DNA from: Escherichia coli
GTDB lineage: Bacteria; Pseudomonadota; Gammaproteobacteria; Enterobacterales; Enterobacteriaceae
Reading direction: 5' to 3' (one strand)
DNA length: 64,000 nucleotides
Assembly: GCF_044324875.1 (NCBI RefSeq)
Contig: NZ_CP172186.1
The notes beneath the pieces are model-generated. The model made no database searches and was not told where the DNA came from. It was given only the letters and a program-made list of their open reading frames with translations. Shown here piece after piece: positions 1 through 60,141 of the stretch (position 1 is the first letter of the stretch; each line of letters starts with the position of its first letter). Both the position numbers and the translations under genes were made by a program.

Positions 1-855
1 ACGGTCATCACGGACGTAGACCCACAGCCGGGCTGTCCGGGTTTTACCGCTGCCCGGCTCCTGGACCGGGACGGGGATATCATCAGCATGGACTTTACCG
101 GGCATCAGCACATACTGGCGCAGGACGTCATACAGCGGCTCCAGCAGTTCAGCAACAGCACCTGTCCAGCGCCCCAGTGTGGCACGGCTCAGCTCCACTC
201 CCTGACGACGGTATATTTCTGACTGGCGGTATAACGGCAGATGGTCTGCATATTTCCCGGTGACAACATGGGCCAGAAGCCCCGCTCCGGCATAACTGCG
301 TGCAATGGGTTTTGAAGGTACTGGTGCCTGCACGATATGGTCGCACCGGCAACAGGCCTGTTTCGGACGTTGTGTTTCGATAACCTTAAAGGCGCTGCTG
401 ATAAGCTCCAGTTGCTCTGACACATCACATCCCAGAGAACTGAGTTCACCACCACAGGCAGGACAGCATTCCTCTTCCGGCCGGATAACCCGGGTTTCAC
501 GGGGAAGTGAGGCCGGTAACGGTTTACGGGCTGAAGACTGGCGCAGGGCGGATGGCAGTACCGGGTCATATTGCTCACCCAGCGTTTCCGCCATTTCTTC
601 CTGAAGTGCGCTGATTCGCTCCTGTGCTTCCTGTATCTGCCGTTCGGTTTTTGCACGAAGTTTTTCTGAGCTTTTACCGAACTGCATACGTTGCAGTTTC
701 GCAACCAGCGCCTTCAGCCGGTTGATTTCGGAAGCATAAGCCGCCACCCGCTGTGAGAGCAGGCGGTTGTATTCAGCCATCTGGCGGATGGTGTCCTGTT
801 GCGTCTGCAACAGTGCCCGCAGGCGGGCGTTCTCATGAGCAAGTGAGGTGTCCAT
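1..855 (-). CDS. tnpC: IS66-family transposase TnpC, N-terminal 285 codons (3' end outside window)
   Basis: Manual translation of minus strand from ATG at 855 is open to position 1: MDTSLAHENARLRALLQ...CCPACGG...[20 protein letters not shown]...LWVYVRDDR; colinear with the 512-aa TnpC at 8504-10042. Not in ORF track because it runs off the edge. Confidence 0.9.
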   Translation of the reverse strand, partial: MDTSLAHENARLRALLQTQQDTIRQMAEYNRLLSQRVAAYASEINRLKALVAKLQRMQFGKSSEKLRAKTERQIQEAQERISALQEEMAETLGEQYDPVLPSALRQSSARKPLPASLPRETRVIRPEEECCPACGGELSSLGCDVSEQLELISSAFKVIETQRPKQACCRCDHIVQAPVPSKPIARSYAGAGLLAHVVTGKYADHLPLYRQSEIYRRQGVELSRATLGRWTGAVAELLEPLYDVLRQYVLMPGKVHADDIPVPVQEPGSGKTRTARLWVYVRDDR

Positions 856-874
856 ATCCTCACTTTACAACGGG

Positions 875-1222
875 TTATATGCGGATTCCAGCGCGTTCCG
901 TTCGTTTCGGGTGCTTCCAGTTGATACCTTCAAGAAGCATGGATAACTGAGCCGGAGTAAGGTGCACCTTGCCGTCACGGGTGACTGGCCAGACGAAGCG
1001 GCCCCGCTCCAGGCGTTTGGTGAAGAGGCACAGTCCGTCACTGTCAGCCCACAACACTTTTATCTGGTCACCCCGGCGTCCGCGGAAGATGAACAGGTGT
1101 CCGGAGAACGGGTCATCCTTCAGGACGTTCTGAACTTTTGATGCCAGGCCGTTAAAGCCATTTCGCATATCGGTGATACCTGCAACCAGCCAGATACGCG
1201 AACCTGCAGGGAGAGATATCAT
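875..1222 (-). CDS. tnpB: IS66-family TnpB (orf2)
   Basis: 115 aa, about 75 percent identical to the TnpB at 8107-8454 ([17 protein letters not shown] motif). Confidence 0.9.
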   Translation of the reverse strand: MISLPAGSRIWLVAGITDMRNGFNGLASKVQNVLKDDPFSGHLFIFRGRRGDQIKVLWADSDGLCLFTKRLERGRFVWPVTRDGKVHLTPAQLSMLLEGINWKHPKRTERAGIRI

Positions 1223-1899
1223 CAGTGGCTGCTCCCTTTTATTTCGCGGATAAGTGTCTGTAATAACGCCGGCGTCAGTTTACCTTTAAGCCTGAGAGTT
1301 CCGGCCGGCAGAACCAGCTCACAACACAGACTGTCGGACGGTGTATTTATCTGCTCTGGTTCCTGTGCGGGGGCCGGGATTTTATTATCCGGCTCCGGCG
1401 TTAACGTCACGGGAAGCAGTGCCGGCATATTTTTTCCGGAAGGCAGCAGGCCACCTTTCCGGTATTGATGGCGCCAGTTGAAGAGCAGGTTATCGTTGAT
1501 TCCGTTTTCCCGGGCGATCTGCGCCACACAGGCTCCGGGCTGCAGTGACTGCTCCACTAAGGCGATTTTAAACTCATAAGGGAAGTTGGGCCGCCGGGGA
1601 CGTTTTTTTACCACGGGGGCTTCGGATATAACGGTGCTTTCAGGACGTACGACTGGTACCGTGGAAAATTGTCCGTAAAGGCAGGCATCAAGTTCCTGCT
1701 CCGACATGCCTGCGGGCAAAGGCCACGAAAGGCCAGCTCTCCGAAAGCGCACGAACATACTACAAACTGTTGATTTTGGTACACCCAGGCGACGCCCGGC
1801 CACAACCCGGGGTAAATGTTCTTCAAAGTGAAGACGTAAAGCTTCAGTGATCCAGGTCCGGTGTTTCATACGATAGTGTCCATTAAAAATGATGGACAT
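1222..1899 (-). CDS. tnpA: IS66-family TnpA (orf1); start codon uncertain
   Basis: C-terminal half matches IS66 orf1 of second copy (NDNLLFNWRHQYRKG...LRLKGKLTPALLQTLIREIK); upstream part of tracked ORF may be read-through. Confidence 0.75.
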   Translation of the reverse strand: MSIIFNGHYRMKHRTWITEALRLHFEEHLPRVVAGRRLGVPKSTVCSMFVRFRRAGLSWPLPAGMSEQELDACLYGQFSTVPVVRPESTVISEAPVVKKRPRRPNFPYEFKIALVEQSLQPGACVAQIARENGINDNLLFNWRHQYRKGGLLPSGKNMPALLPVTLTPEPDNKIPAPAQEPEQINTPSDSLCCELVLPAGTLRLKGKLTPALLQTLIREIKGSSH

Positions 1900-1952
1900 T
1901 ATTTTTGTAGAGCCGGAGGAAACAGACCAGACGGTTTAAATGAGCCGGTTAC

Positions 1953-2699
1953 GTTTTTCCAGCTCTTACGGTGTATTACCTCCGCTTTGTAAAGGCCATT
2001 GATGCTCTCCGCCATCGCGTTGTCATACGAGTCACCAGTACTTCCTGTTGATGCCAGTAATCCGGCTTCCTTAAGCCGCTGTGTGTAGGCCAGCGATACA
2101 TACTGAGAACCTTTATCACTGTGATGGACTGTGCCGGACGGTCGACGGGCCCATAACGCCTGCTCCAGAGCATCCAGCACGAATGTCGTTTCCATAGACG
2201 ATGAGACCCGCCACCCCACGATGTATCCGGCAAACACATCAATGATGAACGCCACATAGACGACCCCCTGCCATGTGCTGACGTAAGTAAAATCAGCCAC
2301 CCACAACTGGTCAGGACGTTCTGCCACAAACTGACGGTTTACGCGGTCGCCTGCGGCAACGGCTTTCCGGCTGACGGTAGTGCGGACCTTTTTACCCCGG
2401 AGAACACCGGCAAGTCCCATAACCGCCATGAGGCGCGCCACTGTACATCTGGCTACCCTGATTCCTTCCCGTAACAACTGACGCCAGACTTTACGCACAC
2501 CGTATACCTGATGATTCCCATCGTATACGCGCAGTATCTCTTTCTTCAGCCAGTCATCGCGCTGCGCACGGGCACTGCGTTTATAAGGATGATGTCGCTG
2601 TTGCTGACAGTGGTAATACGTTGACGGGGCAATATGTAGTTCACTGCATACCGGTCCGACCCCGTACAGCTTACGCAGCTTATCCAGCAGTGGCATCAC
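1953..2699 (-). pseudogene. IS3-family transposase OrfB, C-terminally truncated
   Basis: About 95 percent identical to orfB at 15556-16401 up to ...EVIHRKSWKN, then reads into IS66 sequence (tracked ORF 1899-2699). Confidence 0.8.
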
Positions 2700-3022
2700 T
2701 TTTTCCAGAGGCGGTCGAACTCCGCCTTCGCAAAATAAGCGGAAGCCTGGCGAAGGATATCGTTACTGCGGCGCAGTTCACGATTTTCACGTTCCAGCTC
2801 TTTCAGACGCTGACGTTCAGCGGTGGTGAGCCCGCCATCACCGCCTCCGGTATCCCGCTCATGCTGGCGTACCCAGACACGCAGAGTCTCCGGTGTACAG
2901 CCAATCTTTGGGGCAATGGAACAAATTGCCGCCCACTGTGAGTCATATTCGCCCTGACTTTCCAGAACCATACGAATCGCCCTCTGACGGACTTCGGGGG
3001 AAAAACGAGTATTTTTAGTCAT
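2696..3022 (-). CDS. IS3-family transposase OrfA (HTH)
   Basis: 108 aa [15 protein letters not shown]..., near-identical to 15208-15534 and 58909-59235. Confidence 0.9.
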
Positions 3023-3076
3023 TCTGTTTACCTCTTTCTCAGGGAGTTTAGTCTCCAGGATTCCCGGGGCGGTTCA

Positions 3077-3631
3077 GTTTATGAAAACATATCATCATTC
3101 ATTCGAGATGTTTTTATACACTCTGAAGAAAATGATCTCATTCCTGATTTTCTTAATTCGACATTCGTTGACTGGGATGATGCAAAGTACATGACAGAAA
3201 GTATGAGCTTCGTACTGGAAGAAGTATCAGTTATCCTGAACAAAGAGAATACCGAAACAACAGAAATTTCTTATGATCAAAACCTGTATTCACTTCTGGC
3301 TCATCATAATCATATTACCCCTTGCTGGAATAATGTTATTTCTCTACTGAGTGAAGATGCGTCACTTGCTGGTGATACTTTTTGTAAGTGGCTTAATATT
3401 AATTATTCTTTATTGCCAAATGACTCGTTGCCTTTGACTGATGTTCAGTTCTCGCAATTACTTATTAAGGCTGTTACATCACCTCATATCAGTAAAGAAG
3501 CGTTAATAGCGATAACCATGGCATTTAGGATAACTCTTATTAATGTACCAGAAAACTTACCACTGAATAATGCTGCGGTACTAATCAAGCAAAAATGGCT
3601 GGCACCAACCAGTACTGTGTTTGAACAACTT
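3077..3631 (+). pseudogene. Internal fragment of a low-GC gene of unknown function, truncated 5' by IS629-like and 3' by IS1
   Basis: Frame of tracked ORF 3191-3658 is open upstream to the IS boundary at 3076 and its stop codon lies inside the IS1 IR; AT-rich composition. Confidence 0.4.
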
Positions 3632-3686
3632 GGTGATGCTGCCAACTTACTGATTTAGTGTATGATGGTGTTTTTGAGGTGCTCCA

Positions 3687-3962
3687 GTGGCTTCTGTTTC
3701 TATCAGCTGTCCCTCCTGTTCAGCTACTGACGGGGTGGTGCGTAACGGCAAAAGCACCGCCGGACATCAGCGCTATCTCTGCTCTCACTGCCGTAAAACA
3801 TGGCAACTGCAGTTCACTTACACCGCTTCTCAACCCGGTACGCACCAGAAAATCATTGATATGGCCATGAATGGCGTTGGATGCCGGGCAACTGCCCGCA
3901 TTATGGGCGTTGGCCTCAACACGATTTTACGTCACTTAAAAAACTCAGGCCGCAGTCGGTAA
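3687..3962 (+). CDS. insA: IS1 InsA
   Basis: 91 aa [40 protein letters not shown]... Confidence 0.95.
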
Positions 3963-4384
3963 CCTCGCGCATACAGCCGGGCAGTGACGTCATCGTCTGC
4001 GCGGAAATGGACGAACAGTGGGGCTATGTCGGGGCTAAATCGCGCCAGCGCTGGCTGTTTTACGCGTATGACAGGCTCCGGAAGACGGTTGTTGCGCACG
4101 TATTCTGTGAACGCACGATGGCGACGCTGGGGCGTCTTATGAGCCTGCTGTCACCCTTTGACGTGGTGATATGGATGACGGATGGCTGGCCGCTGTATGA
4201 ATCCCGCCTGAAGGGAAAGCTGCACGTAATCAGCAAGCGATATACGCAGCGAATTGAGCGGCATAACCTGAATCTGAGGCAGCACCTGGCACGGCTGGGA
4301 CGGAAGTCGCTGTCGTTCTCAAAATCGGTGGAGCTGCATGACAAAGTCATCGGGCATTATCTGAACATAAAACACTATCAATAA
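3881..4384 (+). CDS. insB: IS1 InsB (expressed as InsAB' by frameshift)
   Basis: 167 aa, overlapping insA in -1 frame. Confidence 0.9.
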
Positions 4385-4399
4385 GTTGGAGTCATTACC

Positions 4400-4542
4400 T
4401 AACAAGAGATAAAATCCCCTTCTATATGCTTTCAAAAAATAGTATAAATCGTTATTCTGATATGAGTGATTTTATTCAATCCAATAATGAAACAACTCCA
4501 GAAAAGGCATTTATTAAAGAAGTTATGGGAACAGGGGACTGA
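4400..4542 (+). pseudogene. 3' remnant (about 46 codons) of the gene that preceded mcbG, truncated by IS1
   Basis: Frame is open from the IS1 junction to a TGA 4 nt before the mcbG-like start (...PEKAFIKEVMGTGD*). Confidence 0.35.
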
Positions 4543-4545
4543 CAC

Positions 4546-5109
4546 ATGGATATAATAGAAAAAAGAATCACAAAACGACACCTCAGTGAAAGTAAATTAT
4601 CAGGTGTAAATTATTACAATTGTATATTTGAACGAATACAGCTTGACAACTTTAACTTTCGCGATTGTGAGTTCGAAAAATGTCGCTTCGTAAACTGCTC
4701 AATAAAGAATTTAAAACTTAATTTTTTTAAACTTATTGACTGTGAATTCAAAGATTGTTTATTACAAGGAGTAAATGCAGCAGACATTATGTTTCCCTGT
4801 ACTTTTTCTCTTGTAAATTGTGATTTGAGATTTGTTGATTTTATTAGTTTACGGTTACAGAAATCTGTTTTTTTATCCAGTCGCTTCCGTGATTGTTTAT
4901 TTGAGGAAACAGACCTTCGTAAATCTGATTTTACTGGTTCGGAGTTTAATAATACAGAGTTCAGACATTCTGATTTGTCTCACTGTGATTTTTCAATGAC
5001 AGAAGGTCTCGATATAAATCCTGAGATAAACAGGATCTTATCTATAAAGATACCACAGGAAGCAGGTTTAAAAATACTTAAACGAATGGGAGTGGTTGTA
5101 GGGGGATGA
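4546..5109 (+). CDS. mcbG: Pentapeptide-repeat protein, McbG-like (microcin B17 immunity / gyrase protection; Qnr-like fold)
   Basis: 187 aa; MDIIEK... N-terminus and LGVVVGG C-terminus as in Qnr/McbG proteins; tandem pentapeptide repeats (CEFEKCRFVNCSIKNLKL...); AT-rich. Confidence 0.6.
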   Translation: MDIIEKRITKRHLSESKLSGVNYYNCIFERIQLDNFNFRDCEFEKCRFVNCSIKNLKLNFFKLIDCEFKDCLLQGVNAADIMFPCTFSLVNCDLRFVDFISLRLQKSVFLSSRFRDCLFEETDLRKSDFTGSEFNNTEFRHSDLSHCDFSMTEGLDINPEINRILSIKIPQEAGLKILKRMGVVVGG

Positions 5110-5511
5110 GGTGAGTAGACCCGCCGGTTGCCCGGACGGGCCCCTCCTCAGAACCGGACCTGCGGAACTACCGCATCCGGCTCCCGACAGATCAGTGTCC
5201 CCACACATATTTCAGAAAGAATGGAACATTGACTGAGTTCTCCATCTCGATGGGTATCCCAGCATTTTGAGAATCAGATCCAGCTTTTCTCATGTCATTG
5301 GGTGTGGGGTTTGAAGCCCAATGGAGCGGAAACGTACGCTAAGAAGCTAACTATATGATTTTAAGTCAATAAAGTCGTGGCGTTGTTAGGCAGGTTTACG
5401 TTGATTTGATTACCGAGTTTATTAACACTGAAAGTCCCTGAAACCGCATGGCTACTGGCATTGACGGGAAGAGTAAACAAAACCCTCGTTTTCTTTACTC
5501 ACCTCTTCTGC

Positions 5512-5814
5512 TCAAAAAATGAACTTAGCGTACGATCTCGTACGGTTGGGCCTCAAACCCCTTGTATCAATAGATTCAGTCAATGATCGGAAAGCAATGC
5601 CACGAATTTTCAGGTCTTCAATAATTCGGAGCAAATGTGAGAGTGAACGACCAAGTCGATCCAGTTTCCAGACTATCAGTACATCACCTTCGCGAAGTTC
5701 AGCGAGACAGGACTTAAGTCCCGGGCGATTATCACGAGCACCTGAAGCATGATCCTGATGTAAATGCCGGGGATCCACTCCGGCAGCAATCAACGCATCA
5801 CGCTGTAAAGCAAC
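5512..5814 (-). pseudogene. Serine recombinase (resolvase/invertase) fragment, N-terminus removed by IS66-family insertion
   Basis: ...YVALQRDAL..SGARDNRPGL...GDVLIVWKLDRLGRSL...SLTESIDT matches Hin/Gin/resolvase catalytic domain; catalytic Ser region absent; premature end. Confidence 0.7.
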
Positions 5815-6500
5815 GTAAGCGTCAACGGAGCACCGTATTGACGCTTATTTATTGGTGAGTACTACGTTCCATGGCAGGAGTTCGTCAACTCGGTTGGAAA
5901 GCCATTCCGGCAGTACGCTCAGAATATGGCGCAGATACGCTTCCGGATCGATACCGTTCAGACGGCAGGTGCCGATCAGCCCGTACAGCAGTGCACCACG
6001 CTCGCCGCCGTGATCGCTACCGAAGAACACGTAATTTTTCTTTCCGAGACAGACTGCACGAAGCGCTCTTTCCGCTGTGTTATTGTCCGCCTCCGCCAGA
6101 CCGTCATCACAGAAGTTGCACAACGCAACCCAGTGCTTCCTGATATACCGGAACGCATCTCTCAGACGGCATTTTTTCGATAACGTGTGTTCTTTCTCCT
6201 GCATCAGCTTATACAGGGAAGTCAGTAGCGGTTTACTCTGCATTTGCCTGACCGCCAGGCGTTCAGACACCGGCAACCCGCGTATTTCGTGCTCAATGGC
6301 GTACAGTTCGGGCATCAGGATTATGCCGCTTTCCTCACAGAGAGGAATTATCGTAGCATTCCCCGTAGTGATGCCATGTGGCAACTGGCTGTCCAGCTGG
6401 GAAATAGTGGATTTATCAGGCCGCCGAAACTTACTCACGCTGATACACGTATTCGTATAGAGCCCTTTTTTAACGCTGAAAATGAATACGACTGACATCG
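5815..6500 (-). mobile_element. IS66-family element, 3' fragment with terminal IR
   Basis: Terminal GTAAGCGTCAACGGAGCACCGTATTGACG at 5815 resembles the IS66 IR; contains tnpC C-terminal coding region. Confidence 0.7.
5845..6498 (-). pseudogene. IS66-family TnpC, C-terminal fragment
   Basis: ...[54 protein letters not shown]... aligns with C-terminus of TnpC at 8504-10042. Confidence 0.8.
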
Positions 6501-6510
6501 CAAAATAGTG

Positions 6511-6535
6511 GTAAGGCCGTCGGGGGCGGCCTTAC
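6511..6535 (-). terminator. Stem-loop downstream of vapC copy 1
   Basis: GTAAGGCCG-tcggggg-CGGCCTTAC, followed on the minus strand by a T-rich run. Confidence 0.45.
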
Positions 6536-6539
6536 TCCT

Positions 6540-6956
6540 TTATCCTGCCCAGTCTTCCAGTACCAGTCCAGGCACCCGCTCAAACTCTCTCACATTATTC
6601 GTCACCAGTATTGCCCCGGTGGCGATGGCGTGCCCGGCGATCGCCGTGTCGTTCGGACCGATCGGCGTGCCGGCGAGGCGCAGCGCCACCTTAACCTCCG
6701 TGGTTGCATCCACCGCAGCGCGATCCCAGGGCAGGATGGCATCGAGACGGGCGCAGAACGCGTCAACCAGCTGCACGTGGCGTGGCGATGCCTTTGGACC
6801 GGTGGCGCCGAAGCGCATCTCGGAGTAGGTGATGGCCGAGACCACTATACGGTGACCGCGCAGCACCGCCTGCTCCAGATTCTTAAGCACTGCTTCAGGC
6901 TGCTCGCGCATGATGAACGAGCAGATGTTCGTGTCGAGCATATAGATCTTGTTCAC
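6540..6956 (-). CDS. vapC: VapC toxin (PIN-domain RNase), copy 1
   Basis: 138 aa MNKIYMLDTNICSFIM...; overlaps vapB by 4 nt. Confidence 0.9.
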   Translation of the reverse strand: MNKIYMLDTNICSFIMREQPEAVLKNLEQAVLRGHRIVVSAITYSEMRFGATGPKASPRHVQLVDAFCARLDAILPWDRAAVDATTEVKVALRLAGTPIGPNDTAIAGHAIATGAILVTNNVREFERVPGLVLEDWAG

Positions 6957-7183
6957 AGGTTAAATCGTCCTTCGTCGCAGACAACGTCCTCGCGTTCCGT
7001 CATAAAGCCCGGATCGGCCTTTTCTAGCTCCAGGAATGAGCTCCAGCTCGGGCGGAGGGGACGCAGAATGATTCTGTCCCCTTCCCGTACAATCTCCAGC
7101 TCACTCACCCCCTCAAAATCCAGATCGCGGGGCAGACGGATCGCGCGGTTATTGCCATTTTTGAAAATAGATACGGTTCTCAT
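6953..7183 (-). CDS. vapB: VapB antitoxin (AbrB/SpoVT-type), copy 1
   Basis: 76 aa MRTVSIFKNGNNRAIRLPRDLDFEG... Confidence 0.9.
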   Translation of the reverse strand: MRTVSIFKNGNNRAIRLPRDLDFEGVSELEIVREGDRIILRPLRPSWSSFLELEKADPGFMTEREDVVCDEGRFNL

Positions 7184-7222
7184 GTCTTCCTCCTGGCAAG
7201 ATGGCTTTTATATATGTTTAGT

Positions 7223-7301
7223 ATATGCAGATGTGATACATATGTATATGTTATAGATATGCAGATGTGTGAGATATGCGTATGCCTGTCATATGCAGAT
7301 G
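7223..7301. promoter_or_regulatory. Three direct ATATGCAGATG repeats at exact 34-bp spacing upstream of vapB copy 1
   Basis: Repeats start at 7223, 7257, 7291; an inverted copy (TATCTGCATG) follows at about 7324. Confidence 0.4.
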
Positions 7302-7708
7302 CCAAACATATGGATATGCATGGTATCTGCATGTTTCTCTCTTTTTTCACCGGGATCCGAAAAATATCAGTCACGGATCTTCCTCTCCCCCACACAACAC
7401 CACCTCCTGTAAGTACAACATGTAGTACTTCCTTCGGCTGCTCATGACACTATATGTTGTGTTATTTCCCTGACTTGTGATGCGCCACGCAGGGGCGGAA
7501 AACAGCGATATGATGATTTCCTCATCGTGTAGACTGGCCCCCTGAATCTCCAGACAACCAGTATCACTTATTTAAGTGATAGTCTTAATACTAGTTTTTA
7601 GACTAGTCATTGGAGAGCAGATGATTGATGTCTTAGGGTAAGCGTACAGCCTGAACCGTCTGGTCAGAATCTGACGAATTAGACAAAGTGGTGTCCACCA
7701 AATAAGTA

Positions 7709-8110
7709 GTGGGAACCAAAGTGTCAGATATGCAGAAAAATGTGACTCCCGGCAGGCGAAAAGGCTGCCCTAATTATCCTCCCGAATTTAAACAGCAGCT
7801 CGTTGCTGCCTCCTGTGAACCCGGGATATCCATCTCAAAACTTGCTCTTGAAAATGGCATTAACGCCAATCTGTTGTTCAAATGGCGACAACAATGGCGC
7901 GAGGGAAAGCTGCTATTACCTTCTTCAGAGAGCCCCCAGCTACTTCCTGTGACTCTCGATGCAGCTGCCGAACAGCCAGAATCGCTCGCAGAGGACCCGG
8001 AAACCCTCAGTATCAGCTGTGAGGTAACGTTCCGGCACGGGACGCTCCGCTTCAATGGCAATGTCAGCGAAAAGCTCCTGACTCTGCTGATACAGGAACT
8101 GAAGCGATGA
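7709..8110 (+). CDS. tnpA: IS66-family TnpA (orf1)
   Basis: 133 aa, HTH-containing. Confidence 0.9.
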   Translation: MGTKVSDMQKNVTPGRRKGCPNYPPEFKQQLVAASCEPGISISKLALENGINANLLFKWRQQWREGKLLLPSSESPQLLPVTLDAAAEQPESLAEDPETLSISCEVTFRHGTLRFNGNVSEKLLTLLIQELKR

Positions 8111-8454
8111 TCCCTTTACCTTCCGGGACCAAAATTTGGCTGGTTGCCGGTATCACCGATATGAGAAATGGCTTCAACGGCCTGGCTGCGAAAGTACAGA
8201 CGGCGCTGAAAGACGATCCCATGTCCGGCCATGTTTTCATTTTCCGGGGCCGCAGCGGCAGTCAGGTTAAACTGCTGTGGTCCACCGGTGACGGACTGTG
8301 CCTCCTGACCAAACGGCTGGAGCGTGGGCGCTTCGCCTGGCCGTCAGCCCGTGATGGCAAAGTGTTCCTTACACAGGCGCAGCTGGCGATGCTGCTGGAA
8401 GGTATCGACTGGCGACAGCCTAAGCGGCTGCTGACCTCCCTGACCATGCTGTAA
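8107..8454 (+). CDS. tnpB: IS66-family TnpB (orf2)
   Basis: 115 aa; overlaps tnpA stop. Confidence 0.9.
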
Positions 8455-8503
8455 ATCTCTTTATCCTGGTTGTCACAGAATAAGCCCGGTAAAATACGGG
8501 CTT

Positions 8504-10042
8504 ATGAACGACATCTCTTCTGACGACATCTTCCTGCTGAAACAGCGCCTGGCCGAACAGGAAGCGCTGATCCACGCCCTGCAGGAAAAGCTGAGCAACC
8601 GGGAGCGCGAAATAGACCATCTGCAGGCGCAGCTGGATAAACTCCGCCGGATGAACTTCGGCAGTCGTTCCGAAAAAGTCTCCCGCCGTATCGCACAAAT
8701 GGAAGCCGATCTGAACCAGCTTCAGAAAGAGAGCGATACGCTGACTGGTAGGGTGTATGACCCGGCAGTACAGCGTCCGTTGCGTCAGACCCGCATCCGT
8801 AAGCCGTTCCCTGAATCACTACCCCGTGACGAAAAGCGACTGTTGCCTGCGGCGCCGTGCTGCCCGAACTGCGGCGGTTCACTGAGCTATCTGGGCGAGG
8901 ATACCGCCGAACAGCTGGAGTTGATGCGTAGCGCCTTCCGGGTTATCCGGACGGTACGGGAAAAACATGCCTGTACTCAGTGCGATGCCATCGTGCAGGC
9001 ACCTGCACCTTCGCGGCCCATCGAGCGGGGTATCGCCGGACCGGGGCTGCTGGCCCGCGTGCTGACCTCGAAGTATGCAGAGCACACCCCGCTGTATCGC
9101 CAGTCAGAAATATACGGCCGGCAAGGTGTGGAGCTGAGCCGTTCACTGCTGTCGGGCTGGGTGGATGCATGCTGCCGGCTGCTGTCTCCGCTGGAAGAGG
9201 CGCTTCATGGCTATGTCATGACTGACGGCAAACTCCATGCCGATGATACCCCGGTCCAGGTACTGATGCCGGGTAATAAGAAGACGAAGACCGGGCGGTT
9301 GTGGGCGTATGTTCGTGATGACCGCAATGCCGGGTCAGCGTTGGCACCTGCAGTGTGGTTCGCTTACAGCCCGGACAGAAAAGGCATCCATCCGCAGACT
9401 CATCTTGCTTGCTTCAGCGGTGTGCTGCAAGCGGATGCGTACGCCGGGTTCAACGAGCTGTATCGCAATGGTGGGATAACGGAAGCTGCCTGCTGGGCTC
9501 ATGCCCGCCGAAAGATCCACGATGTGCACGTCCGCATCCCGTCAGCACTGACGGAAGAAGCCCTGGAGCAGATCGGTCAGTTGTACGCCATAGAGGCGGA
9601 TATAAGGGGAATGCCGGCAGAGCAGCGGCTTGCTGAACGTCAGCGAAAAACGAAACCGCTGTTGAAATCCCTGGAAAGCTGGTTGCGTGAAAAGATGAAG
9701 ACCCTGTCGCGACACTCAGAGTTGGCGAAGGCGTTCGCGTACGCACTTAACCAGTGGCCGGCACTGACGTACTATGCGAACGATGGCTGGGTGGAAATCG
9801 ACAACAACATCGCTGAAAATGCCCTGCGGGCGGTAAGTCTGGGTCGTAAAAACTTCCTGTTCTTCGGCTCTGGCCATGGTGGTGAGCGGGGAGCGCTACT
9901 GTACAGCCTGATAGGGACGTGCAAACTGAATGACGTGGATCCAGAAAGCTACCTTCGCCATGTGCTTGGCGTCATAGCAGACTGGCCGGTCAACCGGGTC
10001 AGCGAACTGCTTCCGTGGCGCATAGCACTGCCAGCTGAATAA
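8504..10042 (+). CDS. tnpC: IS66-family transposase TnpC
   Basis: 512 aa; N-terminal leucine zipper, CxxC...C zinc motif, DDE core. Confidence 0.95.
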
Positions 10043-10087
10043 CACATCCCCGTCAATACGGCCCTCGCTGTACGCTTACGTCTTAGG

Positions 10088-10436
10088 ACCGGAGAAACGC
10101 AGACGGCGTACCACACAGGAAAAGATCGCAATTGTTCAGCAGAGCTTTGAACCGGGGATGACGGTCTCCCTCGTTGCCCGGCAACATGGTGTAGCAGCCA
10201 GCCAGTTATTTCTCTGGCGTAAGCAATACCAGGAAGGAAGTCTTACTGCTGTCGCCGCCGGAGAACAGGTTGTTCCTGCCTCTGAACTTGCTGCCGCCAT
10301 GAAGCAGATTAAAGAACTCCAGCGCCTGCTCGGCAAGAAAACGATGGAAAATGAACTCCTCAAAGAAGCCGTTGAATATGGACGGGCAAAAAAGTGGATA
10401 GCGCACGCGCCCTTATTGCCCGGGGATGGGGAGTAA
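10088..10436 (+). pseudogene. insC: IS2 insC (OrfA), split by the IS66 insertion after codon 6
   Basis: ATGATTGATGTCTTAGGG at 7621-7638 encodes MIDVLG; remainder [18 protein letters not shown]... resumes at 10088. Confidence 0.85.
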
Positions 10437-11299
10437 GCTTAGTCAGCCGTTGTCTCCGGGTGTCGCGTGCGCAGTTGCACGTCATTCTCAGACGAACCGA
10501 TGACTGGATGGATGGCCGCCGCAGTCGTCACACTGATGATACGGATGTGCTTCTCCGTATACACCATGTTATCGGAGAGCTGCCAACGTATGGTTATCGT
10601 CGGGTATGGGCGCTGCTTCGCAGACAGGCAGAACTTGATGGTATGCCTGCGATCAATGCCAAACGTGTTTACCGGATCATGCGCCAGAATGCGCTGTTGC
10701 TTGAGCGAAAACCTGCTGTACCGCCATCGAAACGGGCACATACAGGCAGAGTGGCTGTGAAAGAAAGTAATCAGCGATGGTGCTCTGACGGGTTCGAGTT
10801 CCGCTGTGATAACGGAGAAAAACTGCGAGTCACGTTCGCGCTGGACTGCTGTGACCGTGAGGCACTGCACTGGGCGGTCACTACGGGCGGCTTCAACAGT
10901 GAAACAGTACAGGACGTCATGCTGGGAGCGGTGGAACGCCGCTTCGGCAACGAGCTTCCGGCGTCTCCAGTAGAGTGGCTGACGGATAATGGTTCATGCT
11001 ACCGGGCTAATGAAACACGGCAGTTTGCCCGGATGTTGGGGCTTGAACCGAAGAGCACGGCGGTGCGGAGTCCGGAGAGTAACGGCATAGCAGAGAGCTT
11101 CGTGAAAACGATAAAGCGTGACTACATCAGTGTCATGCCCAAACCAGACGGGTTAACGGCAGCAAAGAACCTTGCAGAGGCGTTCGAGCATTATAACGAA
11201 TGGCATCCGCATAGTGCACTGGGTTATCGCTCGCCACGGGAATATCTACGGCAGCAAGCCAGTAATGGGTTAAGTGATAACAGGTGTCTGGAAATATAG
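10394..11299 (+). CDS. insD: IS2 InsD (OrfB, DDE transposase)
   Basis: 301 aa [21 protein letters not shown]... Confidence 0.9.
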
Positions 11300-11563
11300 G
11301 GGCAAATCCAAAAAATACTTAGGAATAATTTATGTAAAACAGGTTGTCGTCTTCATGATTTAAACGCAGTACATATATATACTCTATAATAAATACAGGG
11401 AGTATCACGAGACGTCTGGATAAGAGGAATAACCAGAATAAATTGGTAAGGAATAAAGACACTTATTTCTATTGAGAAAAAACATTTATCCTGATGTGAT
11501 TAGTATCAATGAAATAATGTGCTTGTATGGTTGATAAAAATGCATCACTAAAGAAAAAACAGT

Positions 11564-15061: not shown

Positions 15062-15207
15062 TGACTCTTTACATTATGAACATTCTTCGCAATATATTGT
15101 TTATAAGGCATGGTTAGCTGGGGGAAGCGGAAAATATGAAGACAGTAATGATTTGAACCGCCCCGGAAATCCTGGAGACTAAACTTCCTGAGAAAGATGT
15201 AAACAGG

Positions 15208-15534
15208 ATGACTAAAAATACTCGTTTTTCCCCCGAAGTCCGTCAACGGGCAGTTCGTATGGTTCTGGAAAGCCAGGGCGAATATGACTCACAATGGGCG
15301 GCAATTTGTTCCATTGCTCCAAAGATTGGCTGTACGCCAGAGACCCTGCGTGTCTGGGTTCGCCAGCATGAGCGGGATACCGGGGGCGGTGATGGTGGGC
15401 TCACCACCGCTGAACGTCAGCGTCTGAAAGAGCTGGAACGCGAAAATCGTGAACTGCGCCGCAGTAACGATATCCTTCGCCAGGCTTCCGCTTATTTTGC
15501 GAAGGCGGAGTTCGACCGCCTCTGGAAAAAATAA
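15208..15534 (+). CDS. IS3-family transposase OrfA
   Basis: 108 aa [26 protein letters not shown]... Confidence 0.9.
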
Positions 15535-15555
15535 TGCCACTGCTGGATAAGCTGC

Positions 15556-16401
15556 GTGAGCTGCAGTGAGCTGCATATTGCCCCGTCAACGTATTACCAC
15601 TGTCAGCAACAGCAGCATCATCCTGATAAACGCAGCGCCCGTGCGCAGCGTGATGACTGGCTGAAGAAAGAGATACAGCGCGTATACGATGAAAATCACC
15701 AGGTGTACGGTGTGCGTAAAGTCTGGCGTCAGTTGTTACGGGAAGGTATCAGAGTGGCCAGATGCACTGTGACACGTCTTATGGCGGTTATGGGTTTTGC
15801 CGATGTTCTCCGGGGTAAAAAGGTCCGCATTACCGTCAGCCGGAAAGCCGTTGCCGCAGGCGACCGCGTAAACCGTCATTTCGTGGCAGAACGTCCTGAC
15901 CAGCTGTGGGTGGCTGATTTTACTTACGTCAGCACATGGCAGGGCTTTGTTTATGTGGCGTTCATCATTGATGTGTTTGCCGGATACATCGTGGGATGGC
16001 GGGTCTCCTCGTCCATGGAAACGACATTCGTGCTGGATGCACTGGAGCAGGCGTTGTGGGCCCGTCGTCCATCTGGCACCATCCATCACAGCGATAAAGG
16101 CTCTCAGTATGTATCGCTGGCCTACACGCAGCGGCTTAAGGAAGTCGGATTACTGGCATCAACAGGGAGCACAGGCGACTCGTATGACAACGCGATGGCG
16201 GAGAGCATCAATGGTCTTTACAAGGCGGAGGTAATACACCGTAAGAGCTGGAAAAACCGGACAGAAGTGGAGCTGGCTACACTCACGTGGGTGGACTGGT
16301 ATAACAATCGACGATTGCTGGAAAGGCTGGGCCATACTCCCCCGGCAGAAGCAGAAAAAGCTTATTATGCTTCCATCGGAAACAATGATCTGGCAGCCTG
16401 A
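15556..16401 (+). CDS. IS3-family transposase OrfB (DDE; made as OrfAB fusion by -1 frameshift)
   Basis: 281 aa; tracked start is an alternative codon downstream of the frameshift window. Confidence 0.85.
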   Translation: MSCSELHIAPSTYYHCQQQQHHPDKRSARAQRDDWLKKEIQRVYDENHQVYGVRKVWRQLLREGIRVARCTVTRLMAVMGFADVLRGKKVRITVSRKAVAAGDRVNRHFVAERPDQLWVADFTYVSTWQGFVYVAFIIDVFAGYIVGWRVSSSMETTFVLDALEQALWARRPSGTIHHSDKGSQYVSLAYTQRLKEVGLLASTGSTGDSYDNAMAESINGLYKAEVIHRKSWKNRTEVELATLTWVDWYNNRRLLERLGHTPPAEAEKAYYASIGNNDLAA

Positions 16402-16493
16402 GTTCACAGACAAAACATTCTCCAGGAAACCCGGGGCGGTTCAATATGGATACCAGCTGTTCACTTCCAGAGCGGGCTGTTACCCGCTCTGCG

Positions 16494-26876: not shown

Positions 26877-27293
26877 TTACTTCACCCAGTCTTCCAGCAC
26901 CAGGTCAGGCACTCGCTCAAATTCTCTTGTATTATTCGTTACCAGTATCGCCCCGGCGGCGATGGCGTGCCCGGCAATCGCCGTGTCGTTCGGGCCGATC
27001 GGCGTCCCGGCCAGCCGCAGTGCCACTTTAATCTTCGTGGTGGCGTCTACTGCGGCGCGATCCCAGGGCAGGATGGCATCGAGGCGGGCGCAGAATTCAT
27101 CGACCAGTTGGACGTGACGTGGTGAGGCCTTTGGGCCGGTAGCCCCGAAGCGCATTTCAGAGTAGGTGATGGCCGAGACCACTATACGGTGGCCGCGTAG
27201 CACCGCCTGCTCCAGACGCTTCAGGACGGCTTCTGGCTGTTCACGCATGATGAACGAGCAGATACAGGTATCAAGCATATAAGTCTTGTTCAC
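26877..27293 (-). CDS. vapC: VapC toxin (PIN domain), copy 2 (divergent paralog)
   Basis: 138 aa; about 93 percent identical to copy 1. Confidence 0.9.
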   Translation of the reverse strand: MNKTYMLDTCICSFIMREQPEAVLKRLEQAVLRGHRIVVSAITYSEMRFGATGPKASPRHVQLVDEFCARLDAILPWDRAAVDATTKIKVALRLAGTPIGPNDTAIAGHAIAAGAILVTNNTREFERVPDLVLEDWVK

Positions 27294-27520
27294 AGGTTAA
27301 ATCGCCCTTCGTCGCTGACAACATCCTCGCGCTCCGCCATAAAATCTGGATCGGCTTTTTCGTACTCTAGGAATGATCCCCAGGTTGGCCGGACGGGGCG
27401 CAGGATGATGCTGTCCCCTTCCCGGACGATCTCGAGCTCGCTCACCCCCTCAAAATCCAGATCACGAGGCAGACGGATGGCGCGGTTGTTGCCATTTTTA
27501 AATATCGATACGGTTCTCAT
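27290..27520 (-). CDS. vapB: VapB antitoxin, copy 2
   Basis: 76 aa; paralog of 6953-7183. Confidence 0.9.
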   Translation of the reverse strand: MRTVSIFKNGNNRAIRLPRDLDFEGVSELEIVREGDSIILRPVRPTWGSFLEYEKADPDFMAEREDVVSDEGRFNL

Positions 27521-28079
27521 GTTCTTTCTCTCCCGAGCATATGGATATGTGAAACATATCCGGAATATTCAAAGCACCGGGTGTGTGCATATGTTTAGTA
27601 TAGGCAGATGTGTGGCATATGTATAGCGGTAGCATATGTAGATGCCAGGCATATGTTTAGCATATCCCTATTTCTTTCTTTTTTATCGGAGATCCGAAAA
27701 AAGGTTGTTCAGGATCTTCCTCTCCCCCCACACAACGCCACCTCCTGTAAGCACAACATGTGGTGCCGGATTCAGCTGCTGATGACACTATATGTTGTGT
27801 CATCTCCCTGACCTGTGATGCGTCGCGCAGGGGCGGAAAACAGCGATATGATGATTTCCTCAGCGTGGTACACTTCCGGAAAGTTGTGATATTCCGGAAA
27901 GTCGGATCTGACGGAAACGGCTCTCCGGTAATTTAACGGCGTGGTTATATGGATGCTTGTTATCATGGTGATGATGATAACGGCATGATGTTATCAGACG
28001 GCGTGACGGTAAGGGCAGTGATGATGGATGACGTTATCGCATGACCGTCCCTGCCCGGAAAAGAAAAAAGGAGTCACCC

Positions 28080-38920: not shown

Positions 38921-41581
38921 GTGCGCCGTTGAAGCGCGGTGTTTTATGGAGTGTTGCCTGAAAAGCAACATGGCTTAGTGGTATAGCCATTGCATACTGT
39001 GGTTAGCCTTGCTTGGTAACAGGCTCGGAGATCCTGAAAAGGAGAGGTGAACATAGCATCCACAGAAAAGGGTGGTGAATATGGAAATCGTTATAAGTAT
39101 CACCATTCAATGCAAGATGTATATGGATAAACTGGGTTTGTTGAAGTCGAGATCTATGTGGGAAACAGGAAACCAATAACGCAGAACGATTGAAGCGTTA
39201 TTCCCGTACTAGCACAAGAAATCCGTCCGACGTTGATTGTGACCACTCTAACGGGCCAGCTATTGATGAAATAGTTAAACGATCGAAAGACATCCTAAGT
39301 ACATCGCATCTCCACACCGTGAAACTACGGGACTACCTAAACTGGATTTATACCCAGCATGGTAGCGGAGTCTCCATAGTACTCAAGGTCGGCCTGTAAT
39401 GGGTTCCGGCAGTCCGCATTATACGGAAGCAGCAAAGGTATAAATCAACCGGAAGGAAGATGAAAGCCTCACAGTGCTGCGGGGAAGGGAGACAGTTGTT
39501 AGATACATCAATCTCTAAGAGGAGGGTTAGCCAATGCTGCCTGATGAACTTGAGAAAAGATTAGATGGAATTGAGGATGCTTCAAAAAAAGGGTATCCAG
39601 TACGTAATCTATACAAAATTGCGTGTGAGCCCGGACTGTGGCTGCAAGCCTACGTGAATATACGGGCCAATGCAGGTGCACTGACTCAAGGTGTATCAAC
39701 AGATACCATTGATGGCTTTTCTATCGAAAGAGCAGAGAAGCTGGCAAAAACATTGCGGAGTAGAGAATACGTAGCGAAACCTGTACGCAGAGTTCAGATC
39801 CCAAAAAAGGACGGAAAAACCAGACCGCTGGGGATTCCAGGTGGAGACGATAAACTGGCGCAAGAAGTAGCAAGAATTATTCTGGAAAGGGTTTATGAAC
39901 CAGTATTCTCTGAACACTCTCATGGATTCAGACCAAAACGTTCGTGTGAAACTGCGCTCAGATCTATTCGTCCAGTCTGGAACGGAGTTAAATGGATCGT
40001 GGATGTTGATATCAAAGGTTTCTTTGACAATATCCCCCACAAACTATTGCTGAATACACTGGCAGAGAAAATTAAGGATAAGAATTTCCTGAAATTAATC
40101 GAACAGTGGCTGAAGGCAGGATATGTGGACAATTGGAAATACCATCGCTCATATTCTGGCACGCCACAAGGTGGGATAATTTCTCCCTTACTGGCAAATA
40201 TATACCTCGACAAACTGGACCGTTTTGTAGAACAGAATTTAATTCCTGCATATACAAGCGGTACAAAACGAAGAGCGAATCCAGATATGAACAGGCTGGC
40301 CCATAAGATTCATAAACTACGAAAGAAAGTAGACGGTATGGCAACTGATTCTGAATCAGAAAAAGAAGCCATAAAGAAAGAAATTGAACGACTGCTTGAA
40401 GAAAAACGTTCTATACCATCTCAGGTCATGAACGATCCAAACTTCAGGCGTATGTACTATGTTCGATATGCTGATGACTTCGTAATCGGTGTCATCGGCT
40501 CGAAGAAAGATGCTGAACATATATCAAGACAGGTCAGAAACTTTATTACTACTTCACTGGGATTGGAAGTTAATGAAGCAAAGACCAGGATCCGCCATAT
40601 CTCAGAAGGAGTTAATTTTTTAGGCTATGAAATCAGACAGGCAGATGCAAAGAAATTGCTGAAGCAGAAAATGCAAGGGCGGCACGCTCTCCGGAGATCC
40701 ACCACAGGAATTGTGCAGCTCTTCGTTCCTGACAATATAGCCGCTAAATTTTGTCACCAAAAGAAATATGGCTGTTATGAGAATGTGAAGGCTGTACATC
40801 GTTCAAGTCTACAAAATCTCAGTGAAGCTGAAATTGTTCTGACTTTCAACGCGGAAATGCGCGGATTGGCGAACTACTACAGTCTGGCGCTGGACATGAA
40901 ATATAAATTATCAAAATTATATTTCATATGGCAAATAAGCCTTTTTAAGACCCTGGCGAATAAACGACGTAGTTCAGTGAATAAAGTCGCCAAATCGCTA
41001 CGGCAAAATAATGGAGATCTGGCTATTACCGTTCAGGCCAAAAATGGATCCCGAAAGATTGAGGTTTTCAAACTCAAACATGTCAATCGCAACCGAACAA
41101 CGATTGTCGATACGGAACCGAGAACCGCACATATCACAACCCGCACAACAGAGATCATGCGTCGATTAGGGGCAAGGATCTGCGAGTATTGTGCGAAGAC
41201 TGGGCGCTGCGAAGTACATCATGTCAGAAAGCTAAAAGACCTGAAGAAAGGTCGTAAGGCCGGATATAAACCCAGCTTGTGGCAACTAATGATGATCGCA
41301 CGCCGCCGGAAAACGATGATTTTGTGCGCAAGTTGCCACGACAAGTTACATAGCGGAAAACTACCCGATTTGAGACAGGAAAAGGGAAGAATACTCCTGC
41401 AACCACCTGTCTCAAGCGGGGATTCTGCTAAATGAGTTTATCCCCAATAAGCTAGCAATGGAGAGCCGTATGCACTGAAAGGTGCACGTACGGTTCGGAG
41501 GGGGGGTAACGGTGATCTAACTCAAGATAAGCAGGACATATTCGCCATTTATCTTGAAAGACCACACGTACCCTACCCTAC
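38921..41581 (+). mobile_element. Group II intron (2661 bp) inserted in ssb
   Basis: 5' GTGCG, 3' ...AC; domain V-like hairpin GAGCCGTATGCACTGAAAGGTGCACGTACGGTTC at about 41462; encodes RT/maturase/HNH protein; flanking exons splice in frame. Confidence 0.85.
39534..41435 (+). CDS. Group II intron-encoded protein (reverse transcriptase - maturase - HNH endonuclease)
   Basis: 633 aa; RT motifs incl. YADDFVIGV; C-terminal HNH CEYC...HHV...CASCHDKLH. Confidence 0.9.
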   Translation: MLPDELEKRLDGIEDASKKGYPVRNLYKIACEPGLWLQAYVNIRANAGALTQGVSTDTIDGFSIERAEKLAKTLRSREYVAKPVRRVQIPKKDGKTRPLGIPGGDDKLAQEVARIILERVYEPVFSEHSHGFRPKRSCETALRSIRPVWNGVKWIVDVDIKGFFDNIPHKLLLNTLAEKIKDKNFLKLIEQWLKAGYVDNWKYHRSYSGTPQGGIISPLLANIYLDKLDRFVEQNLIPAYTSGTKRRANPDMNRLAHKIHKLRKKVDGMATDSESEKEAIKKEIERLLEEKRSIPSQVMNDPNFRRMYYVRYADDFVIGVIGSKKDAEHISRQVRNFITTSLGLEVNEAKTRIRHISEGVNFLGYEIRQADAKKLLKQKMQGRHALRRSTTGIVQLFVPDNIAAKFCHQKKYGCYENVKAVHRSSLQNLSEAEIVLTFNAEMRGLANYYSLALDMKYKLSKLYFIWQISLFKTLANKRRSSVNKVAKSLRQNNGDLAITVQAKNGSRKIEVFKLKHVNRNRTTIVDTEPRTAHITTRTTEIMRRLGARICEYCAKTGRCEVHHVRKLKDLKKGRKAGYKPSLWQLMMIARRRKTMILCASCHDKLHSGKLPDLRQEKGRILLQPPVSSGDSAK

Positions 41582-44990: not shown

Positions 44991-46637
44991 TTGGCATCCT
45001 GCCAGTCACTCCGGGAATTAACTCTTTTCACCACAGTCTCCATTGCCGTGTTTAAACCAGTGGAGACGTCAATGTCCAGAAAGAGAAAATCCAGGAGCAC
45101 TATGGAAACCTGTTTTAAGATCCTTCAGCTCAAGTTCGACAAGAAGCTGACTAACCGTTGTATCGGACTGACGTTACACATCAGCGCCTCAACCGTTTTT
45201 GAGGTTCTTGCCCGCTTCAAAGCCTCTTCTCTGTCATGGCCATTACCTGCTGATATATCCCATGACACGCTGGAGAAACTCATTTTTCCGCCCAAAGACA
45301 CCTTTGCATCAGAGCTTGTAATGCCTGACATGTTGTACTTCGATACGGAAATGAGAAAACCAGGTGTGACGCGGCAACTGTTGTGGATGGAATACAAGGC
45401 ACAGGCGGGTAACAAAGCGATGGGATACTCGCACTTCTGCCGTTGCTACCGGGAGTGGAAAAAAACGCGACGTCTCTCCATGCGCCAGGAGCATCGTGCC
45501 GGCGAAAAGCTTTTTATCGACTTCTGTGGTCCTACGGTTCCTGTTATTAATCCGGACACCGGTGAGATACGCCGCGTGGCAATCTTCGTGGCCGTAATGG
45601 GGGCGTCCAACTATACCTACGTTGAAGCGTGCGAAGGTCAGGACATGATGTCATGGTTAAATGCCCACAGCCGTTGCCTGACCTTCCTGGGCGGCGTACC
45701 GAAGCTGCTCATCCCCGATAACCTCAGAAGCGCAGTGAAAAAGGCCGATCGATATGAGCCTGTCATCAACGACAGTTATCAGGCACTGGCTGAGCACTAT
45801 GGCACGGTTATCATCCCGGCCCGACCACGCAAACCTAAAGATAAACCAAAAGCAGAAAACGGCGTCCTCATCGTTGAACGATGGCTTCTTGCCCGCATCC
45901 GTAATGAAACCTTCCACACGCTCAGGGCGCTGAATGCGCGCCTTAGGGAGTTACTGACAGACATGAATAACCGGCCAATGAAGGGGTACGGCAATCAAAC
46001 CCGTGCAGAACGCTTCCGCATACTGGATGCGCCAGCACTCTCTCCGCTGCCTCTGGCACCTTATGAATACACGGAATACAAAGCTGTGAAGGTTGGCCCT
46101 GACTACCACGTTGAATATGCCCGTCACTGGTACTCCGTTCCACACGAACTGGTCGGTCAGCGTCTGTCACTGAAGGCGGGGCAGTCGGTGGTACAGCTCT
46201 GGCACAAGGGGCAGTGTGTGGCGCAACATCCGCGCAGCACACATGAATATAAACACACAACCAATCCGCTTCACATGCCAGAGCGCCACCGGCAGCACGG
46301 GACATGGACACCGGAACGCCTGATCGAGCAGGGAAAACGTACGGGCCCGTCCACAGGCCGGGTGGTTGAATCCATGCTGAAGGCAAAACCCCATCCGGAA
46401 CTGGCTTATCGTGCAGTTCTGGGGCTGCTGGCACTTCAGAAAAAATACGGCCCGGAACGGCTGGAAAAGGCCTGTTACGTTGCCCTGCACTATAACGCCC
46501 CTGACAGACGCTTTATCGACAATCTGCTGCGTCACCATCGGGAGAACCTGGAGCTTCCATTATCCCGCCAGGGCGAACAACATCCGGCATATGCTTCAGA
46601 GCATGAAAACCTGCGTGGTCCGGGCTACTACCACTGA
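44991..46637 (+). CDS. istA: IS21-family transposase IstA (start codon uncertain)
   Basis: N-terminal HTH, DDE core (tracked ORF 548 aa). Confidence 0.85.
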   Translation: MASCQSLRELTLFTTVSIAVFKPVETSMSRKRKSRSTMETCFKILQLKFDKKLTNRCIGLTLHISASTVFEVLARFKASSLSWPLPADISHDTLEKLIFPPKDTFASELVMPDMLYFDTEMRKPGVTRQLLWMEYKAQAGNKAMGYSHFCRCYREWKKTRRLSMRQEHRAGEKLFIDFCGPTVPVINPDTGEIRRVAIFVAVMGASNYTYVEACEGQDMMSWLNAHSRCLTFLGGVPKLLIPDNLRSAVKKADRYEPVINDSYQALAEHYGTVIIPARPRKPKDKPKAENGVLIVERWLLARIRNETFHTLRALNARLRELLTDMNNRPMKGYGNQTRAERFRILDAPALSPLPLAPYEYTEYKAVKVGPDYHVEYARHWYSVPHELVGQRLSLKAGQSVVQLWHKGQCVAQHPRSTHEYKHTTNPLHMPERHRQHGTWTPERLIEQGKRTGPSTGRVVESMLKAKPHPELAYRAVLGLLALQKKYGPERLEKACYVALHYNAPDRRFIDNLLRHHRENLELPLSRQGEQHPAYASEHENLRGPGYYH

Positions 46638-46653
46638 CAGAAGGAACAACAGT

Positions 46654-58852: not shown

Positions 58853-58908
58853 TTTGAACCGCCCCGGAAATCCTGGAGACTAAACTTCCTGAGAAAGATG
58901 TAAACAGG

Positions 58909-59235: not shown

Positions 59236-59256
59236 TGCCACTGCTGGATAAGCTGC

Positions 59257-60102: not shown

Positions 60103-60141
60103 GTTCACAGACAAAACATTCTCCAGGAAACCCGGGGCGGT

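Follow-up and report, generated by a model that had tools for sequence, protein, structure and literature searches.

A truncated IS629-like copy abutting an ISCro1-like IS66-family element on an Escherichia coli plasmid

The stretch of DNA analysed here, referred to throughout as the window, comprises 64,000 nucleotides of contig NZ_CP172186.1 of Escherichia coli (NCBI RefSeq assembly GCF_044324875.1). In its first 3,076 positions, an IS66-family insertion sequence (IS) resembling ISCro1, itself cut by the window start, directly abuts an IS3-family element of the IS629/IS1203 type that lacks its right end. The latter is called copy A, as two complete copies of an IS629-like element, B and C, are located further along in the window. 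The two elements and their genes are read on the minus strand and are followed by a fragment of a hypothetical gene on the plus strand. The features are listed below; aa stands for amino acids and ORF for open reading frame.

1..1952, minus strand: ISCro1-like IS66-family element, positions 1-1952 of 2,699 bp, 100% identical over 1,952 bp to the element in p948 (NC_017724)
1..855, minus strand: tnpC, codons 1-285 of 523, DDE transposase, cut by the window start (NCBIfam NF033517, 202.6 bits, cut-off 180)
875..1222, minus strand: tnpB, 115 aa, IS66-type accessory protein, its start overlapping the tnpA stop (NCBIfam NF033819, 128.9 bits, cut-off 50)
1222..1899, minus strand: tnpA, 225 aa, IS66-type accessory protein (NCBIfam NF038385, 295.8 bits, cut-off 150)
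1938..1952, minus strand: left inverted repeat (IRL) of the ISCro1-like element, GTAACCGGCTCATTT, abutting IS629-like sequence (sequence reading and pattern match)
1953..1960, minus strand: 8 bp adjoining the insertion, GGAAAAAC in IS629 orientation, predicted target duplication (from the 8-bp duplications of the ISCro1-like element elsewhere)
1953..3076, minus strand: copy A, IS629/IS1203-like IS3-family element, element positions 1-1124 of 1,310 (alignment with copies B and C)
1899..2699, minus strand: truncated orfB of copy A, starting at 2699 in the -1 frame relative to orfA (ORF list)
2625..2741, minus strand: ALIL pseudoknot at the orfA/orfB overlap (Rfam RF01497, 116.2 bits, gathering score 50, full model 1-117)
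2696..3022, minus strand: orfA of copy A, 108 aa, read 3022→2696 (ORF list)
3052..3076, minus strand: IRL of IS629-like copy A, beginning TGAACCGCCCCGGGAATCC at window position 3076
3077..3631, plus strand: flank of copy A, an internal fragment of about 555 bp of a 3,795-bp (1,264-aa) hypothetical gene

The IS66-family element carries the three genes of its family in the expected order, tnpA (1899→1222), tnpB (1222→875) and tnpC (855→1), and the partial TnpC product aligns to positions 5-178 of the 387 positions of the NF033517 profile. The family assignments of both elements score far above what chance would give. The final 747 bp fall before the window start; the right repeat was read from the identical p948 copy (GTAAGCGACTCGTCAG). 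When the two ends of the circular p948 record are joined, that copy measures 2,699 bp, with the termini GTAACCGGCTCATTTAAACCGT and GTAAGCGACTCGTCAGAACCGT and an 8-bp duplication, TATTATGC. Its full TnpC is WP_000381395.1, labelled by NCBI as "IS66-like element ISCro1 family transposase". The origin of the p948 record falls within tnpC of ISCro1, at a distance of only 33 bp from the counterpart of window position 1, which is probably a coincidence. ISCro1, a well-known and expanding IS of the IS66 family, was first named in Citrobacter rodentium ICC168 and has 24 copies in that strain (PMC3072379). An 8-bp duplication has been given for an ISCro1-like element (PMC6780720), and published sizes of ISCro1 vary, with 2,824 bp in one paper (PMC8764528), as against 2,699 bp for the p948 element. 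The window element shares with ISCro1 the tnpA-tnpB-tnpC order and a terminal repeat starting with GTAA, and other copies of the ISCro1-like element generate 8-bp duplications; only 1,952 of the 2,699 bp are in the window. Of 5,426 complete E. coli genomes, 1,745 contain the ISCro1-like left end, at 5,364 sites in total.

Copy A has the -1-frame orfA/orfB arrangement with a frameshift signal that characterizes IS3-family elements of the IS629/IS1203/IS3411 kind. OrfA matches the NCBIfam IS3 transposase profile with 43 bits, over the N-terminal profile positions 1-86 only and against a whole-protein cut-off of 160. The orfB product matches it (transpos_IS3) with 269 bits, cut-off 160, over positions 93-336 of 369. 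The overlap of the two genes forms the ALIL pseudoknot, an RNA structure that stimulates frameshifting. An rve-type DDE transposase domain is present in OrfB of copy A, of which the C-terminal 47 aa are gone; complete OrfB counts 296 aa in the related plasmid pCh101, so that 47 aa have been lost. The orfB frame reads ...AEVIHRKSWKN through IS629 codon 249 and then continues for 17 codons (VTGSFKPSGLFPPALQK) to a stop at 1899, and these 17 extra codons and the stop are encoded by the ISCro1-like terminus GTAACCGGCTCATTT. The original prediction, that the frame runs through EVIHRKSWKN and then enters the terminus of an IS66-family element at 1952/1953, was confirmed by this reading. Copy A is without its final 186 bp, a stretch that includes the right inverted repeat (IRR) and, of the 296 codons of OrfB, the last 47. 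A full element has both terminal repeats (TG...CA) and a length of about 1,310 bp; copy A shows the left repeat and 1,124 bp within the window. Its left flank is GTT.

The name "IS629-like" given to copy A earlier is a fair one, albeit loose. Copy A is 92% identical to the complete copies B and C in the window and approximately 94-96% identical to copies that the NCBI annotation pipeline PGAP labels as IS629, IS1203 or IS3411 family. The name is used here for the IS629/IS1203/IS3411 group as a whole. With this group (IS3 family, 1,310 bp) copy A shares the TGAACCGCCCCGG... terminal repeat, the -1 orfA/orfB organization, the ALIL pseudoknot and the rve-type transposase; unlike the full elements, it ends at position 1124 and is without the right inverted repeat.

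Copies B (15154-16443) and C (58855-60144) are complete, measure 1,290 bp each and are 2 bases apart. Both carry a 20-bp deletion at the orfA/orfB overlap, where the ALIL match drops to 64 bits as compared to 116 in copy A; this deletion may impair frameshifting. Matching 3-bp flanks are found in neither copy.

The alignment with copies B and C, as had been proposed, located the break exactly. Copy A matches both copies through ...GAGCTGGAAAAAC and then reads GTAACCGG (GTAACC), where B and C have CGGACAGA (CGGACAG). The break is at 1952/1953, with zero ambiguous bases, and corresponds to position 1124 of the 1,310 positions of IS629. It coincides with the first base of the ISCro1-like IRL, and the ISCro1-like element is oriented in the same way as the IS629 genes. 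No single-piece match for an 80-bp query spanning the junction was obtained in 72,556 plasmid records and the 5,426 complete E. coli genomes. An exact 24-mer of the junction was without a match in species-representative genomes or metagenome contigs, and an exact look-up of the fusion ORF (orfB plus the 17 codons) in a protein collection gave no match either. The junction is a private marker, unmatched in the records searched, that could serve to trace this plasmid lineage. No orphan piece of the missing 186 bp of copy A was found elsewhere within the 64-kb window. The right end of the IS629-like copy had been reported as absent, which is correct for the window but does not extend beyond it, since the far end of the IS66-family element lies about 747 bp before the window start.

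The window is part of an avian pathogenic E. coli (APEC)-type plasmid. Its closest relatives are pCh101 and pLH50-c-A, both of them IncK2/Z plasmids, and, over part of its sequence, pAPEC-O1-ColBM. Plasmid pCh101 matches window positions 1953-9682 in one block with 99.7% identity. It contains an intact counterpart of copy A of 1,309 bp that has the same flank, is free of ISCro1 and runs on to the right inverted repeat. Copy A and the pCh101 copy are 99.8% identical and differ at 2 positions, whereas copy A differs from the IS629-like copy in p948 at 20 positions, all of which are located between 54 and 623. Because of this difference (2 positions versus 20), the resident copy is taken to have been the target. 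Judged from these comparisons of sequence, copy A is a resident copy of the plasmid backbone, and its ISCro1-free state persists in the relative pCh101. The hypothetical gene next to it is cut by copy A at GTT on one side and by an IS1, of which the end was found, from position 3632 on the other. An intact version of this gene, WP_001144731.1, is present beside vapBC in plasmid pM160133_p2 (locus L011), where positions 3002-3556 match window positions 3077-3631 with 98.7% identity. The empty site of copy A in pM160133_p2 reads ...GAAAAATATGTT / TATGAAAAC.

The same pair of elements was found nested in other records. Both IS629 halves and a perfect 8-bp duplication were seen in seven of the eight ISCro1-in-IS629 cases that were examined on both sides. 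These seven simple cases are p948 and six further records at other IS629 positions:

p948: ISCro1 after IS629 position 1236/1237, duplication TATTATGC, same orientation as in the window, 113 bp further along
IS629 position 1202: duplication GGCCATAC, same orientation as in the window
IS629 position 1035: duplication ACAGGGAG, same orientation as in the window
IS629 position 1005: duplication CAGCGGCT, same orientation as in the window
IS629 position 896: duplication (C)GACATTCG, same orientation as in the window
IS629 position 1113: duplication CCGTAAGA, opposite orientation to the window
IS629 position 155: duplication GCAATTTG, opposite orientation to the window

The site nearest to the one in the window (IS629 position 1124) is 11 bp off, in the opposite orientation, in pSTEC719_3. 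The nesting in p948, a plasmid of enterotoxigenic E. coli (ETEC) H10407 (NC_017724), pairs the two elements in the relative orientation seen in the window, and the ISCro1 sequences are identical. Both IS629 halves and the duplication are visible there, as opposed to one junction in the window, and the p948 backbone (CFA/I and eatA region) is unrelated to the APEC-type plasmid of the window.

The best explanation, to which a probability of about 0.75 is assigned, is a simple transposition of the ISCro1-like element into the resident IS629/IS1203-like copy. The original prediction had likewise proposed that an IS66-family element had inserted into an IS629-like element and truncated its orfB. 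It is supported by the position of the junction at the base of the IRL, by the intact copy in pCh101 and by the seven cases with 8-bp duplications. As seven of the eight nested cases are simple, the prior for a simple insertion on the unseen side is roughly 0.75-0.85. In such a course of events, the IS629/IS1203-like element would first have inserted into the large hypothetical gene of an APEC-type IncK2/Z-like plasmid. Integration of the ISCro1-like element took place after IS629 position 1124, with both elements pointing the same way, and swapped the last 47 OrfB codons for 17 foreign ones. The right inverted repeat of IS629 would now be 2.7 kb away from the left one, so that neither a full-length transposase nor a compact 1.3-kb element would be left.

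Simple transposition predicts what precedes the window. The remaining 747 bp of ISCro1, with its right inverted repeat (...GAGTCGCTTAC), would be joined by a second GGAAAAAC and by the final 186 bp of IS629. In ISCro1 orientation, the expected layout is ...CGAGTCGCTTAC, then GGAAAAAC, then CGGACAGAAGTGGAGCTGGCC... up to ...GGAAACCCGGGGCGGTTCA, the IS629 right inverted repeat. After the second GGAAAAAC, the IS629 sequence would resume from position 1125 with CGGACAGAAGTGG... On the plus strand of the window, the predicted order is a 194-bp IS629 3' end (positions 1117-1310), 747 bp of ISCro1 and then window base 1. The identity of the ISCro1 copy with copies in other strains, combined with the presence of the junction in no other record searched, suggests that the insertion is recent on this plasmid backbone.

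A number of observations weigh against a simple transposition. The decisive evidence, a second junction at which the 8 bp are repeated and the 3' part of IS629 follows, would fall outside the window, about 750 bp upstream, and no relative can stand in for the missing sequence because the exact junction is unmatched in the collections. The pCh101 copy is flanked by GTT and GTA, so that no 3-bp duplication has been retained in this heavily rearranged region. In addition, one nested case, L016, is one-sided, with IS629 on a single flank.

The last of these observations is in line with an alternative in which the junction in the window is one-sided as well. The ISCro1-like element would have inserted, or would have arrived by recombination, and a later deletion beside it or recombination between two ISCro1 copies would have deleted the 3' part of IS629 or moved it elsewhere. 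In that case, the right end would truly be gone from the replicon, as the original prediction has it. The plasmids concerned are mosaics formed by IS recombination, as is apparent from the IS629-like flanks exchanged among pLH50-c-A, pCh101 and the window, and an ISCro1 copy without any duplication was encountered in L005. Such a history is nevertheless considered unlikely, as seven of the eight nested cases examined are intact simple insertions and the 64 kb contain no second ISCro1 copy that could have acted as the recombination partner.

There is a small chance that the missing right end is the one at the far end of the window. Positions 63982-64000 (TGAACCGCCCCGGGTTTCC) hold, in reverse complement, 19 bp from the start of an IS629-like IRR and mark a fourth copy, cut by the window end and located on the minus strand, in the same orientation as copy A. 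The two ends of the window would in that case be joined in a circle of about 64.9 kb, closed through ISCro1. Both outer flanks read GTT, and the counterpart of the window-end copy in pLH50-c-A belongs to the copy-A sequence type, with 99.4% identity. That counterpart, however, is a separate and complete element of 1,310 bp. The left half of the real empty site of copy A, as read in pM160133_p2, differs from the window-end sequence, and a search of the plasmid collection for the joined empty site found none. The IncK2/Z repA of pLH50-c-A is absent from the window, and none of the 10 candidate ORFs in a partial scan was a replication protein, which suggests a replicon larger than the window.

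The chance is very small that the junction descends from a p948-type insertion (1236/1237), followed by a 113-bp deletion beside the left end of ISCro1 and by transfer through recombination within IS629. An identical ISCro1 is carried in the same orientation, 113 bp further along, by p948, four other ETEC plasmids and the chromosome-sized record LR882998, and in the 701 bp compared the flanks on either side show 100% identity. The three IS629 copies compared are identical over positions 624 to 1124, so that a crossover in this part would be possible. Yet copy A has the pCh101-type base at all 20 positions (54-623) that differ in p948, and this route requires three events instead of one. ISCro1 is, moreover, known at many other IS629 positions, and an independent hit needs no extra step. 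Descent from p948 would give TATTATGC followed by TTCCATCGG... after the right inverted repeat. A contig misjoined at a repeated IS can practically be dismissed: the region is dense in repeated IS copies and the junction is unique among public records, but a misjoin is expected inside shared sequence rather than at an IS terminus beside unrelated DNA, the junction looks as a genuine transposition would leave it, and the window crosses at least eight IS copies unbroken, which implies a long-read or finished assembly.

A nested insertion between two known elements is an ordinary event of an already known kind. In the accessory regions of E. coli virulence plasmids such nesting is commonplace, and good descriptions of both elements exist. 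For annotation, the locus is an interrupted IS3-family pseudogene beside an intact-looking ISCro1-like element.

A second nesting in the window, of an IS66-family element in an IS2, had also been noted and is real. The IS2 spans 7530-11310, and about 108 bp into it lies an ISEc8-like IS66-family element of 2,442 bp (7638-10079) with GTAAGCG termini and a perfect 8-bp duplication, GTCTTAGG; both junctions are visible. The ISEc8-like element is only 68-78% similar to the ISCro1-like element and is a different member of the IS66 family. Since at least its right part is common to pCh101, its insertion in IS2 was probably inherited and is probably older than the ISCro1 event. Of the repeated IS66-family activity that was proposed on the basis of these cases, the two nestings stand, but the IS2 case involves a different family member and probably does not represent a second recent event. 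Two events in an IS-dense plasmid region are insufficient to speak of a "targeting" of IS copies, as had been done. A second IS2, on the minus strand at 61063-62393, is uninterrupted.

A survey of complete E. coli genomes placed ISCro1 inside IS629-like elements at about 20 positions, with both orientations represented. Three positions were occupied, to the exact nucleotide, in either orientation in unrelated records:

IS629 position 155: pAST198_2 (one orientation) and p94_0962-3 (the other); L016 and L017
IS629 position 591: DLI.6n chromosome (one orientation) and p05_3471-1 (the other); L018 and L024
IS629 position 896: p88_19539-3 (one orientation) and IrN plasmid (the other); L014 and L015

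Given about 11 sites in each orientation along 1,310 bp, approximately 0.1 exact coincidences are expected as compared to the 3 observed, in a sample that is small. Homologous recombination between ISCro1 copies is unable to invert the element with respect to its flank. The simplest reading of these cases is one of preferred sites. It is possible, if somewhat doubtful, that ISCro1-like elements have preferred target positions in IS629/IS1203-like elements. No consensus is evident in the 8-bp target sequences, and the site in the window (position 1124) is not among the re-used positions. We know of no target-site preference described for the IS66 family. If true, such a preference would lend some substance to the idea of "targeting".

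A bias of ISCro1 to the 3' end of IS629, or to one orientation, was considered and rejected as an ascertainment artefact of query design, as queries in the opposite orientation and from the 5' part spread the sites throughout the element and over both orientations. An enrichment of ISCro1 in IS629-like elements is not claimed either: in a rough estimate from the 5,364 ISCro1 ends, random insertion would give about 6 nested copies, with IS629-like DNA estimated at approximately 0.1% of the collection, versus a few dozen found, and shared descent together with tolerance of insertions in IS-rich DNA can account for the difference.

In the sister EspP plasmids pE2865-2 (L006), p88_19539-3 (L014) and p94_0962-3 (L017), the same IS629-like copy bears ISCro1 at three different positions of the IS629-like element. 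Its neighbours are an OB-fold gene fragment on one side and, where visible, a remnant of IS600 on the other. ISCro1 is present at 1035 and 896 in the same orientation and at 155 in the opposite one, each time with its own 8-bp duplication, which implies repeated independent hits at this locus or loss followed by re-insertion. The reverse nesting was observed in L019, L020 and L022, where IS629-like elements are located inside ISCro1-like elements at ISCro1 positions 2099 and 546; the one at position 2099 is common to about eleven chromosomes.

A third IS66-family sequence in the window is a remnant at 5815-6498. It retains the terminus GTAAGCG, at 5815, together with a minus-strand fragment of tnpC that codes for 217 C-terminal aa, and its similarity to the ISCro1-like element is about 67%. 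Further mobile-element genes are found in the plasmid leading region, at 39534-41435 and 44991-47409, and comprise a 633-aa ORF and an IS21-like istA/istB pair. The ORF is a putative group II intron reverse transcriptase, based on the ltrA annotation of matching plasmids. IstA matches a Mu-transposase C-terminal domain, with rve just below the cut-off, and IstB matches IstB_IS21. The window also contains two vapBC-type toxin-antitoxin loci, at 6306-7369 and 26885-27530, the second of which is about 85% identical to the first.

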